The translations under genes were made by a program, and so were the position numbers. From UHGV virus genome UHGV-0209651: a stretch of 48,107 bases of DNA. One strand, written 5' to 3'. Positions 2,014-38,964 of the stretch are shown here, one piece after another. Position 1 is the stretch's first letter; each line of letters starts with the position of its first letter. The notes beneath the pieces are model-generated. The model worked only from the letters and a program-made list of their open reading frames with translations, searched no databases and was not told the origin of the DNA. The DNA is from a virus.

Positions 2014-2593
2014 CCAAAAAGCTTCTGATATCTCCTGTCAGGGTAACGCGATCTTGTCCCTTATAGCCACGGCATCAAAGGGAAATGTTTTTGCTGATAT
2101 TGTTCTGGTTAAAGATGTTGGTGATGGCGTTATGACTGTGCTACCTCTTGTGAGCGGCGCGAACGTTTCCGGGGGGGAGATTAAATGTCAGGAGGTGTAT
2201 GACATTCCCTTCATTCGGTATCAGGCCGGGAACAGCGCGGTAAAAATGACGCCCCGCATTGGCGATATTGGTCTGGTAATCGCCTGTGACAAAGACACAA
2301 CCAATGTCAGAGCGTCAAGGCAAAGCGGGCCACCGCCAACTCAGCGTCGCCACTCATACTCGGATGCTGTTTACATCACTGCTATCGCTAGTTTGAACGA
2401 TGAACCCACGGAGTTCGCTGAGTTTACAGGCGGCGGAATAAACATACAGAGCCCTGGTGTGGTTAACATCAACGGACTGAAAGTCCATTCAAACGGGCAG
2501 CTTGAGCTTGTCGACGGTTCTATCGTTGATGGGCATACTCATGGTGGGGTAGTATCAGGAGGAAGCCGAACCGATCCCCTGGCACCGGCATAA
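2003..2593 (+). CDS. baseplate spike protein (gpV / Mu gp45-like)
   Basis: ATG at 2003 with GGAGG 8 nt upstream. The N-terminal OB-fold-like region resembles gpV spikes (from memory). The track ORF starts upstream at 1943 and overlaps the previous gene. Confidence 0.55.
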   Translation: MATNQKASDISCQGNAILSLIATASKGNVFADIVLVKDVGDGVMTVLPLVSGANVSGGEIKCQEVYDIPFIRYQAGNSAVKMTPRIGDIGLVIACDKDTTNVRASRQSGPPPTQRRHSYSDAVYITAIASLNDEPTEFAEFTGGGINIQSPGVVNINGLKVHSNGQLELVDGSIVDGHTHGGVVSGGSRTDPLAPA

Positions 2594-2604
2594 AGGGAAT
2601 AAAA

Positions 2605-2985
2605 ATGTCGTTCTTAGTCATAGCTGCTCTACTTGGATTAATTCCTGCCTTTATCGCTCAAAGTAAGGGTAGGTCATTCGGCGCGTGGTGGTTGTATGGA
2701 TTCCTTCTTTTTATCGTTGCCATTATTCATGTTCTTTTCGTTACGCCACGCAATACAGTAGGTACCGTTGCCAGTGACTCAACCGGCCCTATGCGAGATT
2801 GCCCATATTGTGCAGAGCCAGTGAAGTATCAGGCCACAAAATGCAAGCATTGTGGTAGTGAGATAGAGTCTATGCCGATCCCTGAGCCAAAATATAATGG
2901 AACCCAGATAGCCTGGAGCAGAATTGCAATTTTGATTGGAGGCATTGTGTTGCTGGCTATCATTTCAGGAATCATAGGCAAATAA
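2605..2985 (+). CDS. membrane protein with CxxC...CxxC zinc-ribbon; moron in the baseplate module
   Basis: 126 aa with hydrophobic helices at the N-terminus, middle and C-terminus and a CPYC...CKHC motif. Followed by a strong terminator. Confidence 0.5.
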   Translation: MSFLVIAALLGLIPAFIAQSKGRSFGAWWLYGFLLFIVAIIHVLFVTPRNTVGTVASDSTGPMRDCPYCAEPVKYQATKCKHCGSEIESMPIPEPKYNGTQIAWSRIAILIGGIVLLAIISGIIGK

Positions 2986-18193: not shown

Positions 18194-19495
18194 TTAGCGT
18201 TTGAAAAAGTTAGAATTTAACTCTTTCGGGAAATAGTGCTTTCTTTTAACCCAAACAAAGCCATCTACTTTTGATAATACAGCAACATCGACTGGACCGC
18301 CAACAGTCTCATATTCATGAGATACTTTTCGTTTGAAAGCCGTTAGGTTAACCAAAGATTCCGCCATATATGCTAAGTCTGCCTTGCCAAGAGACTGAAG
18401 CATCGATGTCATCTTCTTGGTATGATTGTTTTCAATGTAACTGTTCAACTTATTATCGTAATCACTCATAATTAAATTTTTGAGTTGAGAAACTTCGGTT
18501 TTAAATTGACCTTCTAGTAGTTGATTGTTTAAACTCGGGTATATATTACTTTCAATAAAATTATTGAGTCTGTCGAATATTTCTTCGCTGAGTGTGTTGG
18601 TGAAAACATTAATGTTAGGGTTGCAACCATCAATAAATGTTAGCACTTCATCTTCTTGGGCGAATGGTATTACATATCCATTATTCGAAATATTATTGTG
18701 TGTTTTATCTTCAACGTATCTAAACATAATTCTGTCTTTGTATATGCCGAATACATGGAGTGTATTTATAGATGGGTAAAATTCATTATCACCGTAACCG
18801 GTGATGACTATACCTGAGTATGTCCGACTAGTGTGCACCTTACATATTAAATAAGAGGAATATAATATTATTTTGTCAATTAAATCTTCCTCTAAACTCT
18901 CAAAGTTATCAAGCACTATAACCGACGGGATTAATGGTTTTATTACATCTGAGATATATGTGATGATTTCGCCTAAGTCGCGCTCATCAAAACCTTCAAA
19001 GAAAGGGTTGTTTCGCAATGCGTTGATTTCATTATCAATTTGTTGTTTTACTATGCTTTGAAATATATTGTTATTTATGTTAGTTCCAGGGTTTAAAGTT
19101 AAATAGTTAACAATGTTGTTACTGTTAATGTGTTGCATCAACCCTTTTATATTATCTATAACTAAATTTATTACGCACGATTGGCGCATGCTGGGAGTTA
19201 TTAAGTCCTCGTTTTTATTGATGTAATGTAGGAAATCATGAACATAATCATTAACGGTACCAAATTTTTCGGTGCCAAGCTGCTTTCTATATGATTTTAT
19301 AATCAGTTCCCAGGGGGCTCCCCCTAGAGCAGCGTTATTATAAACCATAATCCCAACAGGGTGATGCTTTGATAGTTCAAACAGCTTTTCAGCGCTGTTA
19401 TTAATTTTTATAAGCCTATTGTGTTCAGTCGTAACAGCTGAATCAGCTGCTAGGGCGATCCCTGTGTTATTAATAACTACTATTTCAGCTGTCAT
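18194..19495 (-). CDS. AT-rich 433-aa cargo protein with a putative N-terminal Ntn-hydrolase (proteasome-beta/HslV-like) domain
   Basis: AGGGAG RBS. Very low GC and a codon usage unlike the rest of the phage. The N-terminus MTAEIVVINNTGIALAADSAVTTE..K..PVG matches the Thr1/Asp17/Lys~33/Gly47 spacing of proteasome-type Ntn hydrolases (pattern match from memory). Co-oriented with and downstream of cI. Confidence 0.6.
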   Translation of the reverse strand: MTAEIVVINNTGIALAADSAVTTEHNRLIKINNSAEKLFELSKHHPVGIMVYNNAALGGAPWELIIKSYRKQLGTEKFGTVNDYVHDFLHYINKNEDLITPSMRQSCVINLVIDNIKGLMQHINSNNIVNYLTLNPGTNINNNIFQSIVKQQIDNEINALRNNPFFEGFDERDLGEIITYISDVIKPLIPSVIVLDNFESLEEDLIDKIILYSSYLICKVHTSRTYSGIVITGYGDNEFYPSINTLHVFGIYKDRIMFRYVEDKTHNNISNNGYVIPFAQEDEVLTFIDGCNPNINVFTNTLSEEIFDRLNNFIESNIYPSLNNQLLEGQFKTEVSQLKNLIMSDYDNKLNSYIENNHTKKMTSMLQSLGKADLAYMAESLVNLTAFKRKVSHEYETVGGPVDVAVLSKVDGFVWVKRKHYFPKELNSNFFKR

Positions 19496-19993: not shown

Positions 19994-20716
19994 TTACCCA
20001 TGCTTCCTGTACGTCTGCGGCATGCTGCCGATCACCTTGCCGAACACGAACACCCGGTTCATCTCGTCTTTCTCGATCGGGTCCCAGGCTGCATAGCTCT
20101 TGTTATCTGAGATAACCAGCAGCTTGTCCTTCATCTTCTGCAGGCGCTTGACGTGAGCAGTGTCGTCGTACAGGAAGGCGTATATCCCGTCGCCGTCGAA
20201 GCTCTTAACGCTGATGTCGACGAACAGCAGATCACCCGGCTCAATCGTCCCAGACATGCTGTCGCCCCGGACGTTGATGATCCGGATGTTCTCAGCCTTA
20301 CGCCCATCGAACATGTGCCGGGCTTCCGCTGGCGCATACTCAACGGAGTGGAGAATCTCCACGAACTCCTGATTGATAATGCCTGGTCCAGCGCTAACCG
20401 TTATATCCAATAGGTCAATGCGAAAGACATCCTTAAGGGTTTGGGTTGCCTCTGTATCGATTCCGTCCTCATCGACATCACCGAGCAGATACGACGCTGA
20501 CGTACCAATGTGAGACGCCAGTGCTTTCAGCGTTCCGCGTCTTGGAATCGACTCTCCATTGAACCATTTGCTTACGGCCTTAGGGGTCAACTTCATCCTC
20601 TTGGCGATCTCAGCCTGTCGACCATGTGGTATCAATCCAGCTTTATCGCAGGCCAGCGCTAGCCTCTGAGAGAATTCTTTTCGCGCTCTTTCTTCATGAA
20701 CCATATGTTCAATCAT
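19994..20716 (-). CDS. cI: CI-type repressor (HTH-XRE plus S24 LexA-like peptidase domain)
   Basis: 240 aa. An N-terminal HTH and a C-terminal ...RGDSM...K autocleavage module. The ATG sits directly at a TATTAT element, so the transcript is probably leaderless as in lambda. Confidence 0.9.
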   Translation of the reverse strand: MIEHMVHEERARKEFSQRLALACDKAGLIPHGRQAEIAKRMKLTPKAVSKWFNGESIPRRGTLKALASHIGTSASYLLGDVDEDGIDTEATQTLKDVFRIDLLDITVSAGPGIINQEFVEILHSVEYAPAEARHMFDGRKAENIRIINVRGDSMSGTIEPGDLLFVDISVKSFDGDGIYAFLYDDTAHVKRLQKMKDKLLVISDNKSYAAWDPIEKDEMNRVFVFGKVIGSMPQTYRKHG

Positions 20717-30110: not shown

Positions 30111-30185
30111 GGGTCAGAAGCACAGCGGTTGTGCGTTCGGCTGTTAACCGAATGGTCGAAGGTTCGAATCCTTCCTGTCCCGCCA
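30111..30185 (+). tRNA. tRNA-Asn(GUU)-like (possibly a pseudo-tRNA)
   Basis: Hand-folded cloverleaf. D stem gcac/gtgc, anticodon stem ttcgg/ccgaa, anticodon loop ctGTTaa, T arm gaagg-ttcgaat-ccttc, discriminator G, CCA. The acceptor stem has one T:T mismatch and position 8 is A. Confidence 0.5.
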
Positions 30186-30190
30186 AATTA

Positions 30191-30267
30191 GCGCCATTAG
30201 CTCAACCGGAGAGAGCAATAGCCTTCTAAGCTATCGGTTTCAGGTTCGAGTCCTGAATGGTGCACCA
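30191..30267 (+). tRNA. tRNA-Arg(UCU)
   Basis: Canonical cloverleaf. Acceptor gcgccat/atggtgc, anticodon loop cTTCTAa, T loop ttcgagt, CCA encoded. Confidence 0.8.
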
Positions 30268-32726: not shown

Positions 32727-33359
32727 ATGGCGTCGAAAAAGCTTACAGCTGATCAGCAGCAGCTTTTCGATGCTCTGACTCCGCTGCAAAAAAGATTCGC
32801 ACTTGCAATCATCAAAGGGAAGAACCAGACGGACGCCTATAAGGCTGCGAAGGGGAAGGCTAAGACGCCAGAAGCCATTCGCAACTCGGCGAGTCAGATC
32901 TTTACAAATCTTGGTGTGCAAGCCTTTCTCAAATCAGTGCAGGGCGAGATTGTCGACGAGGCAATCATGACCCGAGAGGAGGCGTTAAAGCGCCTTTCTA
33001 AGATGGGTCGAACATCCATCGCCGATATAGCCGAGTTCAGCAACAGCGTAGTTGGCGAAGATGACGATGGCAATCCTGTGTTCCAGGCCGTATGGAGCTT
33101 TAAAGATTCCGCTCTTCAGAACCCTGACGCAATGAGTGCAATCTCTGAGCTAACTACGGGAAAGGACGGCATCAAGCTGAAGATGCACGATCCCAAAGCG
33201 GCAATTAAGCAGCTTGCCGAAATGCAGGGTTGGGACGCTCCGAAGAAAACCGAGTTGACCGGTAAAGACGGCGGCCCGCTGAATCAGGTGACGTACACCG
33301 CTGAAGACTATGCGAAGGCCCAGCAGAAGCTGGAGGGAAGGTTAGAAGGGCTGGACTGA
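32727..33359 (+). CDS. terminase small subunit
   Basis: 210 aa. N-terminal HTH-like region ...QKRFALAIIKGKNQTDAYKAA.... Immediately precedes terL. Confidence 0.75.
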   Translation: MASKKLTADQQQLFDALTPLQKRFALAIIKGKNQTDAYKAAKGKAKTPEAIRNSASQIFTNLGVQAFLKSVQGEIVDEAIMTREEALKRLSKMGRTSIADIAEFSNSVVGEDDDGNPVFQAVWSFKDSALQNPDAMSAISELTTGKDGIKLKMHDPKAAIKQLAEMQGWDAPKKTELTGKDGGPLNQVTYTAEDYAKAQQKLEGRLEGLD

Positions 33360-33360
33360 T

Positions 33361-35037
33361 ATGAGCGGAATTATCGAATGGGATGACCTGTCATTCCCGG
33401 AGCGCGTGATCATCCGTTCAAAGTCCACGAAGTCATTCCTGAACTTCACCCGGATATGGTTCGAGCTGATTCAGGGCGACCGGTTGCTGGTTAACTGGCA
33501 TCACCGCCTGATGGCTTCGAAAATTGATGATCTGCTTGCCGGGCGCCTTGTCCCGCGAAACCTGATTATCAACATCCCGCCAGGCGGTACGAAAACTGAG
33601 TTCTTCTCCATTCACTTCCCGGCGTATGTCAACGCCCTGGTGCAGGAGAAGCGGCTTAAACGCTTTCGCAACCTGAATATCTCTTTTGCTGACACGCTGG
33701 TAAAGCGTAACAGCCGGCGCACCCGCGACATTATCGCCAGCCGTGAATATCAGGAGTTCTGGCCCTGCTCGTTTGGTGTCAACCAGGCAGAAGAGTGGGA
33801 GATAAAGGACGAGCGAGGGCGCTCTATAGGACAGACGGTATCGCGCTCAAGCAACGGGCAGATCACCGGTGGTCGTGGTGGATACTACGGACCAGAGTTC
33901 TCCGGCATGGTGATGCTGGACGACTACAACAAGCCGGTGGACATGCTCAGCGAGTCCCGACGCAAAAGCGCGAATACGCTGCTGGTTAACACCATTCGAT
34001 CGCGGCGCGGCGATAAGTCGAAAGAGCACCCTACGCCATTTGTGAGCATTCAGCAGCGTCTGCACACCGACGACGCAACGGGCTTCATGCTTGCCGGCGG
34101 AATGGGCGTGCCGTTTCACCATGTCGCCATACCAGCCATGATCGACGAGAAGTACATCCAGTCGCTCGATGAGCCATGGCGTTCGCTTTGCTGGGAAACG
34201 GTCAAAGATACCGATTCTGTGGTCGTTGGTGGCGTTCGCTACTGGTCCTACTGGCCGCAGATGGAAGACGTTAACGACCTCCTGCAGCTGTGGGAAAAGG
34301 ATCGCTATACCTTCCTGTCGCAATACCAGCAAAACCCGATGGCGCTGACTGGCGGGATCATCGACACCAGCTGGTTCAGAACGTACACCACTCTGCCGAA
34401 ACTTACTCACCGCGCTGTGTACGTCGATACGAACAGCGGGAAGGTAGAGGACTGGCTGGATTACACCGTGTTTACGCTGGCTGGCATGGGCGTGGACGGT
34501 AATCTGTACATCATCGACGTCGTTCGCGGTCGGTGGGACCCGGAAGACCTCCTGAAGAAAGCGGAAGAGGTTTGGGAAAAATGGCGCCTGTCTGGCTCCA
34601 TGCGGGTTATGCCGCTCCGCCACATGGCCATTGAAGAGAAGCAAGCCGGACAGGGCCTCATCACCACTCTGAAAAAACGTAGCCAGACGCCCGGGCAGCT
34701 CGCCATCCCGGTGAGGGAAATTCCGCGCGGTACCGGGCAGAACAAGCTCGTTCGCTGCCTTAACGTCATCCCCCAAATCAAAACCGGGAAAGTGTTTGTC
34801 CCCGCGACGCACACCGACGACGGACAGAAGCTTTCCAGCATCTTCTACGAGGACGGCACGATCGCAGGCTCAACGGAGTGGGTTCTGACGGCGATGACGG
34901 AATGCGCTGCTTTCTCCGCTGATGACAGTCACGACAACGACGACATCCTCGATACCTGGATGGACGCAATCGACGACAACCTGATTTCCGGCCCGCAGCC
35001 GATGGTTATCGACCCGAATCAACTCAGGAGAATTTAA
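33361..35037 (+). CDS. terminase large subunit
   Basis: 558 aa. ATPase N-terminal domain with a deviant Walker A and a C-terminal nuclease domain. Sits between terS and the portal gene. Confidence 0.8.
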   Translation: MSGIIEWDDLSFPERVIIRSKSTKSFLNFTRIWFELIQGDRLLVNWHHRLMASKIDDLLAGRLVPRNLIINIPPGGTKTEFFSIHFPAYVNALVQEKRLKRFRNLNISFADTLVKRNSRRTRDIIASREYQEFWPCSFGVNQAEEWEIKDERGRSIGQTVSRSSNGQITGGRGGYYGPEFSGMVMLDDYNKPVDMLSESRRKSANTLLVNTIRSRRGDKSKEHPTPFVSIQQRLHTDDATGFMLAGGMGVPFHHVAIPAMIDEKYIQSLDEPWRSLCWETVKDTDSVVVGGVRYWSYWPQMEDVNDLLQLWEKDRYTFLSQYQQNPMALTGGIIDTSWFRTYTTLPKLTHRAVYVDTNSGKVEDWLDYTVFTLAGMGVDGNLYIIDVVRGRWDPEDLLKKAEEVWEKWRLSGSMRVMPLRHMAIEEKQAGQGLITTLKKRSQTPGQLAIPVREIPRGTGQNKLVRCLNVIPQIKTGKVFVPATHTDDGQKLSSIFYEDGTIAGSTEWVLTAMTECAAFSADDSHDNDDILDTWMDAIDDNLISGPQPMVIDPNQLRRI

Positions 35038-36984
35038 GTGTGGTGGTTTAAAAAGAAAGAAGTCGCCGCGCCTGAGCCGGCAAAAGAACCTGAAGCACCG
35101 ATGGTCGGGATCAGGCCCGAGGCCGTGGCCGAAGTCCGCGCATTACCGAAAAGAGAGTTTCAGCGCTACGAGCCGCCGAAAGGGGTGATCCCCGAGGCTA
35201 TCAAAAGCGCCATTCTGGCAATGGACTCCACGCCTTACGATGCTCTCAATGCTGCATATGGCGGTTACGGCTACGGCGACTTTGATAGCTTTCCCGGCTA
35301 CCCGTATCTGGCCACGCTGGCGCAGAAGCCTGAATATCGCAAGATGGTCGGCACCATCGCGGAAGAAATGACCCGCAAATGGATAAAGCTCAAAACTGTC
35401 GGCGATGAAGACAAGGCGGATCGGGTAAGAAAACTTGAAGAGGCCATGAAGCGGTTTAAGGTGCGCGAGCGCTTTAAAGAAGCCGCAGAACACGATGGCT
35501 ACTTTGGCGGCGGCCAGATTTACATCGACGTTCGTTCTCCGCGGGGAATCTCCGCATGGATGGATGACAACGAACTGCAATCGAAGCTCTTCATGAGCGA
35601 CAAGAAGATCACGAAAGGCAGCCTGCAGGGGTTCAGGGTCATCGAGCCCATCTGGACCTATCCGGGGATTTATAACTCCGACAACCCGCTGAGCCCGGAT
35701 TTCTACAAGCCGACGCAGTGGTTTGTCATGGGCCGGACCGTACATGCAAGCCGGATGATTGATTTCGTCTCGCGGCAGGTACCTGATCTGCTGAAAGCAT
35801 CGTATAACTTCCGCGGACTGTCTCTCTCGCAGATTGCTGAGCCATACGTCAATAACTGGCTTCGCACCCGCGACAGCGTCAGCGACATGATTCACTCGTT
35901 CTCTGTTCCGGTAATCGGAACAAATATGAGCACGATTCTGCAGGGTGGGGCGGCAGATGGCCTTCTGGCAAGGCTTGATGTCTTCAACCGATGCCGTGAT
36001 AACCGTGGCGCATTCGCAAAAGACAACAACCCTACCCAGCCAGAAACGGTTGAGTTCGTTAACGCCCCGCTTAACGGCCTTGATGCCCTGCAGGCACAGT
36101 CGCAAGAGCACATGTCTGCGGTTTCGAGCATCCCGCTCGTCAAGCTGCTGGGCATTACTCCAAATGGCCTTAACGCAACGTCTGACGGCGAAATCCGCGT
36201 TTTCTACGACTACATTCACGCCCTGCAGCAGTCTGTTTTTAAAGACAACCTGAAGCGCGTGATGGACATCATTCAGCTCTCTGAGTTTGGCGACATTGAC
36301 GATGGCATAACCTTCGACTTTGAGCCGCTGTACGAAATGAGCGCTAAAGAGCGGGCGGAAATTCGCAAAGTAGACGCTGACACGGACGCTGTCTATGTGG
36401 CCGCCAGCGTGCTATCTGGCAATGAAGTCCGCGAAAAAATTGCCGGTGATCCGGATTCGCCCTATCACTCTCTGGACCTGAATGATGACCTCGAAATCGA
36501 AGACGACTACGACGAAGAGGAAGAGCCCACCGTGACAGCTAATGACTCGAATCAGATGAATGGGTATGCAAGTGTCAAGCCCGATGCAGAAACGGCGTCT
36601 GCCATATATTCGCACCTTGAATCTCTTGGCATAAATAATTTAATCGCCCCGAGTGACATGCATGTAACGCTCATGTACTCACGCAACAAGCCAATCACGG
36701 TAGATGCTGACCCTGTTAGGGTTTATGAGGCACAAATTAGTGGCGATGTCGAAATTATGGGCAAGGAGCCTTGGCGAGCCTTGGTTATGCATCTTGAAAG
36801 CCCTGACCTGCAAAAGCGTTTTGCGGAGCTGAAGGCCTCTGGTGCAGAACATTCATACCCAGAATATCGCGCTCATCTTTCCATTAAATACAACCCCGAA
36901 AATGACGACTTGCAAAAGCTGAAAGATACTCCGCTACCCATCAAGGTTATTCGTCTAGATGGAGAGGAGTTTAAGCCAATATAG
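35038..36984 (+). CDS. portal protein (DUF1073-like) fused through an acidic linker to a C-terminal 2H-phosphoesterase-like domain
   Basis: GTG start after AGGAG. 648 aa. The body is portal-like by position and composition. The last ~145 aa carry HVTL (nt 36661-36672) and HLSI (nt 36874-36885) 71 residues apart. Confidence 0.7.
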   Translation: MWWFKKKEVAAPEPAKEPEAPMVGIRPEAVAEVRALPKREFQRYEPPKGVIPEAIKSAILAMDSTPYDALNAAYGGYGYGDFDSFPGYPYLATLAQKPEYRKMVGTIAEEMTRKWIKLKTVGDEDKADRVRKLEEAMKRFKVRERFKEAAEHDGYFGGGQIYIDVRSPRGISAWMDDNELQSKLFMSDKKITKGSLQGFRVIEPIWTYPGIYNSDNPLSPDFYKPTQWFVMGRTVHASRMIDFVSRQVPDLLKASYNFRGLSLSQIAEPYVNNWLRTRDSVSDMIHSFSVPVIGTNMSTILQGGAADGLLARLDVFNRCRDNRGAFAKDNNPTQPETVEFVNAPLNGLDALQAQSQEHMSAVSSIPLVKLLGITPNGLNATSDGEIRVFYDYIHALQQSVFKDNLKRVMDIIQLSEFGDIDDGITFDFEPLYEMSAKERAEIRKVDADTDAVYVAASVLSGNEVREKIAGDPDSPYHSLDLNDDLEIEDDYDEEEEPTVTANDSNQMNGYASVKPDAETASAIYSHLESLGINNLIAPSDMHVTLMYSRNKPITVDADPVRVYEAQISGDVEIMGKEPWRALVMHLESPDLQKRFAELKASGAEHSYPEYRAHLSIKYNPENDDLQKLKDTPLPIKVIRLDGEEFKPI

Positions 36985-36993
36985 GAATTCCTG

Positions 36994-37791
36994 ATGACCG
37001 GAAAGAAAAAACCAAAAACTATCCGGCCTATCAGGCCTAACGCTGGCGTCGAAGCATGGTACCGCCGACAGCTTGATAAGCAGGTGCAGGAAATGCAGGC
37101 ATCTGTTGTCTACTGGCTGTCAGCAAACTATCGAGCCAGCGGCGCGGCTGTCGCCATGGATGCATCACCTGCAGTGATGATGCGTAATGCCATGCAGAAA
37201 CTGGCTAAGCGCTGGACGCGGCGGTTTGATGACATGGCGCAAAAGCTGGCCGACAGGTTCGCTAACGACGCCATGAAAAACGCGGATGCTTCACTGGTCA
37301 CAGCCTTCAAAGATGCGGGGTTTACTGTCGAGTTCAAGATGACCTCGCAGATGAATAACGCTCTTCAGGCGACCATCGCCGAGAATGTCGGCCTTATCCG
37401 ATCCATACCCGAGAAGTATTTCACCGAGGTGGAAGGGCTGGTTATGCGGTCGGTAGCGCGTGGGCGCGACTTGTCCTATCTCACCGATGAACTCCAGAAG
37501 CGATACGGGATTACCCGGCGCCGTGCGGCGTTCATTGCCCGAGATCAGAACAACAAGGCCACCTCAGTCGTTCAGTCTGCTCGACAGCAGGCGCTCGGCA
37601 TTACCCAGGGTATATGGAAGCACTCCCATGCAGGCAAAAAGCCTCGCCAGTCCCATGTGAAAGCTAATGGCAAGATGTTCGACCTCTCGGAAGGAATGCT
37701 CATTGATGGCGAGCACATCATGCCAGGCGAGTTACCAAATTGTCGTTGCACCTGGGAGGCTGTCATTCCAGGGCTTTCAAAACAGGATTGA
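36994..37791 (+). CDS. head morphogenesis protein (SPP1 gp7 / Mu F-like)
   Basis: 265 aa with the C-terminal ...PNCRCT... motif typical of this family. Confidence 0.75.
   Translation: MTGKKKPKTIRPIRPNAGVEAWYRRQLDKQVQEMQASVVYWLSANYRASGAAVAMDASPAVMMRNAMQKLAKRWTRRFDDMAQKLADRFANDAMKNADASLVTAFKDAGFTVEFKMTSQMNNALQATIAENVGLIRSIPEKYFTEVEGLVMRSVARGRDLSYLTDELQKRYGITRRRAAFIARDQNNKATSVVQSARQQALGITQGIWKHSHAGKKPRQSHVKANGKMFDLSEGMLIDGEHIMPGELPNCRCTWEAVIPGLSKQD

Positions 37792-38964
<1,173 letters not shown>

Follow-up and report, generated by a model that had tools for sequence, protein, structure and literature searches.

Acb1 proteins are phage-encoded nucleases that act against CBASS (cyclic oligonucleotide-based antiphage signaling systems), and those known are stand-alone, early or middle products of approximately 150 amino acids (aa). 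They include T4 gp57B, the Acb1 of Erwinia phage FBB1 (7T26/7T27 in the Protein Data Bank, PDB), and the phosphodiesterase of Burkholderia phage BCSR5 (9Q2G/9Q2Y). In the description by Hobbs et al. (2022) an HxT/HxT tetrad is the acid-base catalyst of Acb1, with Y12, W74, F107, and W147 as base-stacking residues along with a C-terminal lid; fusions or virions are not mentioned there. The subject here is an open reading frame (ORF) from the virus genome UHGV-0209651, which is 48,107 nucleotides long and, taken whole, is what I refer to as the window. The 648-aa product of this ORF is a phage portal protein, one ending in a domain that shares with the above enzymes the same Pfam family (PF23474), the same compact 2H fold (as modelled), and an HxT/HxS tetrad, and that has conserved aromatic residues aligning with Y12 and Y108 of FBB1. 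Unlike those enzymes, this domain forms the C-terminal portion of a late structural protein, and its activity is predicted.

The combination as such has a precedent. Portal as well as MuF proteins with a fused 2H domain were remarked upon by Iyer, Burroughs, Anantharaman, and Aravind (Viruses 2022, PMC9503650), who proposed packaging and injection as a means of countering nucleotide immune signals. That is the same architecture class and the same logic as considered for the window, set out there in one sentence of comparative genomics, without experiment and without analysis of the Klebsiella lineage, of a gain/loss module, or of cyanophage Pam3. An initial claim, in the first-pass annotation of this sequence, that portal-2H fusions were as yet undescribed thus has to be withdrawn, and novelty fails as well on naming, since the NCBI label for the exact sequence is 'anti-CBASS Acb1 family protein'. 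Already known, that is, are the domain call (via Pfam annotation and the NCBI name) and the architecture class with its interpretation (PMC9503650). Added here are the frequency of the fusion within its lineage (14 of 80 relatives), purifying selection on the domain, and an unremarked domain in Pam3. New as well are natural phage pairs in which one member has the domain and the other lacks it, and a 499-bp cassette which brings its own MuF start.

The anti-CBASS nucleases and sponges characterized so far are all made only after infection has started. Other phage proteins are known, or have been proposed, to be packaged into heads and then injected, i.e., the DarA, MuF, polyvalent, and Alt-like carriers. 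The portal, an essential 12-mer, instead stays in the capsid and is not ejected. The window's fusion therefore is like P1 DarA/DarB, MuF-toxin proteins, polyvalent proteins, and T4 Alt and internal proteins in that an accessory enzyme is found on, or with, a capsid-internal protein, and is unlike DarA, MuF, and Alt cargo in that its carrier remains behind, has a copy number fixed at 12, and would require cleavage prior to any ejection. A further point of comparison is the T7/ICP3 ejectosome protein gp15 (bioRxiv 10.1101/2025.07.23.666291), which is virion-borne and counters CBASS. That protein nevertheless binds and inhibits the effector CapV, does not lower cyclic GMP-AMP (cGAMP), and is neither a portal nor a 2H protein (bioRxiv 10.1101/2025.07.23.666291).

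That a DUF1073 portal is followed here by an acidic linker and then by a 2H/Acb1-like domain, as was first proposed from inspection of the sequence, is borne out by sequence profile, by predicted fold, and by a conserved catalytic tetrad, and in Pfam, PDB, and fold comparisons of the C-terminal domain Acb1 is the best match (Table 1). PF23474 is found over aa 510-637, scoring 85.8 bits with the whole protein and 89.8 bits with the domain alone, against a family cut-off of 27 bits, and precomputed Pfam annotation of database copies agrees with Acb1. The phrog_755 profile covering the C-terminus is labelled 'RNA ligase'. Sequence matches of the C-terminal half within the PDB are to the Acb1 proteins of FBB1 (7T26) and BCSR5 (9Q2G), with identity between the domain and solved Acb1 enzymes only 23-26%. 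An AlphaFold2 model of aa 496-648, built upon 25 sequences, has a predicted local distance difference test score (pLDDT) of 91.7 and a predicted template modelling (TM) score of 0.84, with its first approximately 10 residues of low pLDDT. The five best Foldseek matches to this model within the PDB are all Acb1 structures, namely 9q2g and 9q2y, chains A/B (E 3.8e-8, TM 0.71-0.74), and 7t26 and 7t27 (E 7e-8 to 6e-7, TM 0.67-0.76). These are followed, at E of approximately 1e-3, by Usb1, LigT, plant cyclic phosphodiesterase (CPDase), a poxvirus cGAMP phosphodiesterase, and MHV ns2. PADLOC returned no match to the domain.

The two histidine motifs are positioned as was originally reported, i.e., HVTL at residues 542-545 and HLSI at 613-616, separated by 71 residues. 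As a pair defining the 2H superfamily they nonetheless do not serve, because H-x-[ST]-x is expected by composition about once (approximately 1.15 times) and is seen four times in this protein, and the motifs therefore were left out as evidence. Decisive instead is what is found at the level of the domain, beginning with the Pfam match given above. With the full FBB1 Acb1 sequence employed as the reference for mapping active-site residues, H542/T544 align with H44/T46 and H613/S615 with H114/T116 (H113/T115 in the numbering of the paper), while Y510 aligns with Y12, and Y607 with Y108 (F107 in the numbering of the paper). Among nearest relatives, in an alignment of 16 sequences, H542, T544, R594, H613, Y618, and E643 are invariant, with F645 following E643, and the motif residues H542, T544, and H613 are invariant in the 25-sequence alignment as well, with H542 and T544 invariant throughout alignments A1, A2, and A3. 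The ratio of nonsynonymous to synonymous substitution rates (dN/dS) for the domain, versus two diverged fusion lineages, is 0.08-0.10, which is equal to that of the portal body. The domain, I conclude, is a selected and probably active enzyme of the Acb1 family, and its being active specifically in the manner of Acb1 can be viewed as likely.

Turning to the remainder of the protein, the length of 648 aa and the acidic linker (...LDLNDDLEIEDDYDEEEEPTVTANDS...) are as initially described. The PF06381 match is full-length, spanning profile positions 2-356 of 357, and phrog_146 (portal) extends over the whole protein (E 1e-136). PDB sequence matches to the portal half are Pa193 gp19 (E 7e-34), E217 gp19, and Pam3 gp3. 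Assignment to the PF06381/DUF1073 portals is based, that is, upon the profile, upon position following the large terminase (TerL), and upon homology to structurally proven portals. The GTG start is backed by relatives, in which ATG-MWWFKKKE is found at the equivalent position. The protein had been thought longer than usual, and this holds relative to unfused close relatives with 506-aa portals, with the extension measuring 142 aa. The linker is common to unfused relatives as far as ...EEEE. Position 36478, where the stretch singled out initially begins, is codon 481, so the stretch 36478-36984 consists of the end of the linker, the domain, and the stop codon. A full-length AlphaFold2 model was mediocre (pLDDT 66) and was used for linker disorder only; in the full-length alignment short Acb1 rows probably were misplaced by MAFFT, their identity to the query going from 19-44% (alignment A2) to 12-22% (alignment A4). 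Altogether, the ORF probably encodes a functional portal, extended C-terminally by the linker and an Acb1-type domain, so far as can be predicted from these comparisons.

That two genes have been spuriously joined, i.e., via a missed stop codon or frameshift introduced in assembly or annotation, was considered and is refuted by independent assemblies. At least 24 contigs, drawn independently from NCBI genomes (K. pneumoniae assemblies among them) and from ENA metagenomes, encode an identical 648-aa product; one of these contigs, belonging to an NCBI assembly, is 1.05 Mb long. Among NCBI K. pneumoniae accessions (HBQ2246608.1 included) it goes under the names both of 'DUF1073 domain-containing protein' and of 'anti-CBASS Acb1 family protein'. 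What might speak for an artefact is a 152-aa Cronobacter protein (P0001) which is 76% identical to the domain and is the one close homologue resembling a stand-alone gene. This protein, however, results from a start called at an internal GTG of an in-frame fusion, 650 aa in length (IMG/VR loci L032/L035), and its candidacy as a stand-alone gene was rejected; nor was a match to it on genome contigs found in the contig scan. A recent fusion with a downstream moron was dropped for the same reason, i.e., because P0001 is that internal GTG call.

Use of the domain as query in a scan of IMG/VR yielded 22 loci, and the fusion is in frame throughout, both at nine loci traced by ORF extension, covering the four divergent types and a sample of close copies, and at the 14 fusion loci of a portal-body scan. 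Four types can be distinguished there: one of 648 aa with domains 98-99% identical to that of the window, two of 650 aa (76-77%), and one of at least 600 aa (50%). The 14 fusion loci come from a set of 80, the nearest relatives of the portal body retrieved from IMG/VR, of which the other 66 have portals of 504-518 aa. Among the best database clusters, 119 of 120 are without the domain.

How the domain may come and go is indicated by comparison with Klebsiella phage RCIP0114, which is 97% identical to the window on both flanks of a module where 499 bp in the window replace 16 bp. Carried on this module are the end of the linker, the Acb1 domain with its stop codon, 10 nt of spacer, and a new ATG for the MuF-like gene together with that gene's first 14 codons. 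Its guanine-plus-cytosine (GC) content is 45.9%, versus 54.5% for the portal body. Domains 98-99% identical to one another sit upon portal bodies which are 94-95% or instead 98-99% identical to that of the window, a pattern that is consistent with exchange by recombination. In relatives lacking the domain, the MuF-like ORF can begin at an ATGATG found within the acidic-tail codons of the portal, in another frame (MMTSKSKTTTTKRKKQTLTIRAVHPNAGVEAWY...), such that it overlaps the 3' end of the portal gene by approximately 77 nt in RCIP0114 (locus L003, 3122-3198); the MuF proteins of these relatives as given in GenBank are shorter, starting from an internal ATG. The window retains the ATGATG (36482-36487), with its frame broken by the module and with the MuF start now located at 36994.

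The company kept by Acb1 domains elsewhere also is informative. When 1.84 billion cluster representatives were searched with HMMER, 843 proteins were recovered as relatives of the domain, with E of no more than 1e-3. Most of the best 150 are stand-alone, at 140-190 aa, with lengths exceeding 200 aa seen with 13 of the top 25 versus 25 of the next 125. The longer architectures include PF06381 portals plus Acb1 (P0006, P0016, P0018, P0070), a PF04860 portal plus Acb1 plus pyrophosphatase (P0149), Acb1 plus MuF (P0010), DarA_N plus Acb1 (P0005, P0008), a polyvalent protein with SLT, Acb1, and ADP-ribosyltransferase domains (P0108), Acb1 plus an Alt-like ADP-ribosyltransferase (P0142), and GNAT plus Acb1 (P0022, P0041). 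The fusions with pyrophosphatase, GNAT, and ADP-ribosyltransferase suggest multi-enzyme, anti-defence cargo proteins. As a separate matter, the inorganic pyrophosphatase fusion, P0149, also has a weak, sub-threshold HiPIP-like match.

Matching regions furthermore are present, in lineages independent of that of the window, in GenBank 'portal protein' entries of Vibrio phage vB_VpM-PP270 and Aminobacter phage Erebus. In the portal of cyanophage Pam3, gp3 (PDB 8HDS chain A, 621 aa), the domain profile is found on residues 478-610 (E 1.2e-12), with both histidine motifs present (LHVTIAYSK and SHISLSL). The paper describing that structure does not mention an Acb1-like domain, and 8HDS is absent from among the above fold matches, meaning that the model as deposited lacks the domain. 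Pam3 gp3 as well as Pa193 and E217 gp19 belong to the same portal family, and come with the same head-gene set (cement protein, DUF2213 protein), as seen in the window. Pa193 gp19 (PDB 9B41 chain L) has a different C-terminal extension, in that 94-528 of its 765 aa are built and the remaining approximately 237 residues are unmodelled. Portal C-terminal add-ons may be common, that is, in heads of the Pa193 type.

Taken together, these observations are best accommodated by what I will describe as a capsid-targeted anti-CBASS enzyme, carried by the portal, to which I assign a probability of roughly 0.6. The C-termini of portals, their crown and barrel, face the capsid interior. Because of that orientation, assembly of each procapsid would place twelve enzyme copies within the head, with the short acidic tail that normally ends the portal C-terminus represented here by a flexible acidic linker plus an Acb1-type 2H phosphodiesterase. 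Association with a capsid-internal carrier, as may be expected of head cargo, is found here in the form of the in-frame fusion to the portal C-terminus. Capsid packaging of the domain, by analogy, is plausible, and incorporation into heads can be considered likely. The substrates most likely would be 3'-5'-linked cyclic di- and trinucleotides, i.e., CBASS-type alarm signals of the host, with their hydrolysis metal-independent and via His/Thr acid-base catalysis, as seen with the Acb1 of T4 and FBB1. Given that the portal stays in the capsid, release of the domain requires cleavage, which would take place at the linker, possibly by way of the DUF2213 protein. The freed domain would then exit via the tail along with the DNA, and would act prior to any phage gene expression. 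I view this latter part, release followed by ejection, as possible though doubtful. That the domain is cargo meant for the next host is inferred through guilt by association with the DarA, MuF, and polyvalent carriers. Rather speculatively, and on balance improbably, the acidic tail of this portal family might even act as an all-purpose loading dock for cargo directed against host defences, with twelve Acb1 domains clipped off in the disordered linker by the DUF2213 protein as the head matures and expelled with or ahead of the DNA, and with the 499-bp cassette mobile between portal backgrounds.

A number of considerations weigh against this capsid-targeted enzyme. Absence of the domain from 66 of the 80 closest relatives makes it accessory. 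Delivery, as noted, depends upon a cleavage which here is only postulated. The DUF2213 protein, with a PHROG label of 'head maturation protease', is the only candidate for bringing about release of the domain, and the literature search turned up nothing on protease activity of DUF2213 proteins; in the study of Pa193 the homologue (gp24) is a putative scaffold, with cleavage undecided there (PMC11456595). Nor, in the literature that was searched, was there any biochemical, proteomic, or genetic study of portal-Acb1 fusions. The C-terminal domain of Pam3 gp3 may have been either removed or disordered, and so does not discriminate. At 23% identity, lastly, equivalents of FBB1 W74 and of the C-terminal lid (W147/E141) are not confidently mappable.

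The principal competing explanation dispenses with delivery. The fusion would serve instead to tie synthesis of the enzyme to the late operon, at a time when structural proteins trigger CBASS, with the enzyme acting in the virion-producing cell, either as part of free or excess portal or following cleavage, and never being injected; this seems to me to be unlikely. The fusion, which directly follows the large terminase, does belong to the late operon for head morphogenesis, where the Q antiterminator, the lysis genes, and terminase precede it. The titles of CBASS-escape studies, furthermore, suggest virion-assembly proteins as triggers (preprint 10.1101/2023.05.21.541620), the portal itself is not ejected, and most Acb1 homologues are stand-alone and cytoplasmic. 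Yet a separate ORF at this place would give rise to equal timing, whereas all 22 of the domain loci of IMG/VR are in-frame fusions. The preference of the domain's nearest relatives for carriers which are capsid-internal (DarA_N, MuF, polyvalent) argues as well for capsid targeting rather than timing, and the skew among best relatives towards long proteins, given above, also counts against coupling of expression alone.

From a different perspective, the domain could be healing RNA ends, that is, functioning as a LigT/CPDase-like 2',3'-cyclic phosphodiesterase in the repair of tRNA or mRNA which has been cut by host anticodon nucleases. The 2H fold and catalytic motifs are the same, PHROG and many GenBank records name the homologues 'RNA ligase', LigT, Usb1, and plant CPDase are among the fold matches, and RNA repair is what Iyer et al. 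(PMC9503650) propose for many phage 2H domains. Such healing is quite improbable nevertheless, as the generic Pfam family 2_5_RNA_ligase2 matches the domain with only E 0.21 and 12 bits, versus 89.8 bits for Acb1, while fold matches have E of approximately 1e-8 and TM of approximately 0.7 with Acb1 versus approximately 1e-3 and 0.5 with LigT and Usb1. A partner in the form of an RNA ligase or kinase was not encountered within what was scanned, i.e., solely the head/lysis region plus two other ORFs. Even less probable is that the domain is an inactive or structural appendage, whether a decayed relic or a head or portal accessory involved, for example, in DNA packaging. Its absence from most close relatives does indicate that it is dispensable for assembly, but both HxT/S motifs along with the family-invariant R594, Y618, and E643 are intact, the domain's dN/dS is as low as that of the portal body, and the domain has been kept across fusions down to 50% identity. 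Against an artefactual joining, in turn, are the independent assemblies and the occurrence of the identical 648-aa product in 13 of the 80 IMG/VR relatives.

Should the domain indeed be both packaged and released, then phages would be pre-loading signal-degrading enzymes into their virions, the principle seen with P1 Dar and with the internal proteins of T4 would reach beyond restriction to nucleotide-signalling immunity, and the portal C-terminus would represent a cargo address. The question is a tractable one, there being a natural, 97%-identical pair with and without the domain (the window prophage and RCIP0114), as well as Pam3, which is cultured, solved, and of the same architecture.

The surroundings of the fusion are those of a lambda-like late region, with gene order of small terminase (TerS), TerL, portal, and MuF in the window (Table 1), where the MuF-like gene follows directly upon the fusion and has a 5' end that is part of the 499-bp module. 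On database contigs the identical region reads Q antiterminator, holin, lysozyme, TerS, TerL, portal, MuF-like, DUF2213, cement, major capsid, tail terminator, and sheath.

Table 1. Positions of the portal-Acb1 fusion, of its parts, and of adjacent genes within the window
Feature	Position	Strand	Details
Small terminase	32727-33359		
Large terminase, 558 aa, directly upstream of the fusion	33361..35037	+	phrog_38 E 7e-100
Portal-Acb1 fusion ORF	35038..36984	+	648 aa; GTG start one base past TerL stop
Portal core, PF06381 Phage_portal_3 / DUF1073, aa 89-451	35302..36390	+	Pfam E 2.7e-91
Acidic linker, predicted disordered, approximately aa 470-509 (...DPDSPYHSLDLNDDLEIEDDYDEEEEPTVTANDSNQMNG)	36445..36564	+	pLDDT <50 at 479-509 in full-length model
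499-bp replacement module	36537..37035	+	blastn vs Klebsiella phage RCIP0114: homology ends 36536, restarts 37036
Acb1-family 2H phosphodiesterase domain (predicted), aa 510-648	36565..36981	+	PF23474 E 3e-24; phrog_755 E 2e-30; PDB 7t26 E 5.7e-9
First catalytic motif, H542-V-T544-L, aa 542-545	36661..36672	+	aligns with FBB1 Acb1 H44/T46
Second catalytic motif, H613-L-S615-I, aa 613-616	36874..36885	+	aligns with second HxT of FBB1 Acb1
MuF / SPP1 gp7-like minor head protein, 265 aa	36994..37791	+	PF04233 E 1.4e-14; phrog_324 E 3e-99; TIGR01641
DUF2213 / Pa193 gp24-like protein, 389 aa	37795..38964	+	PF09979 E 1.9e-47; phrog_2229 E 1e-167

Some further observations concern these same genes. 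The 90% cluster to which the window's portal-Acb1 protein belongs has 3922 members and holds as well proteins of 229-232 aa described as 'phage head morphogenesis / minor head' (MuF), and phrog_30637, a profile of 1119 positions, has matches to the portal as well as to the DUF2213 protein. This cluster membership and this profile are a hint that portal-MuF-DUF2213 polyproteins may exist in some relatives. Within the DUF2213 protein is a repetitive segment rich in Asp, Glu, and Lys, with repeats around 38553-38624, and the protein is 521 aa long in two sister prophages (L010 and L011) versus 389 aa, so that the repeat segment varies in length. Those same two prophages, which have an identical portal-Acb1 protein, carry a gene for a 238-aa ClpP-family protease, located in opposite orientation between lysis genes and terminase (2231-2947, minus strand, in L010; 442-1158, minus strand, in L011). 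This ClpP gene was not called in L005-L009 or in L012.

Elsewhere in the window, two adjacent tRNA genes, tRNA-Asn(GTT) and tRNA-Arg(TCT), are found upstream of the late region (30111-30267, plus strand). A 433-aa ORF (18194-19495, minus strand) lies in an island of 35-38% GC; it has no Pfam match and has a marginal, JetB-like match in PADLOC (E 0.007). It is approximately 500 bp from a gene for a CI-like repressor (19994-20716), a protein with a helix-turn-helix plus an S24 peptidase, and the vicinity of such a repressor is the usual site of prophage-borne defence or exclusion morons.

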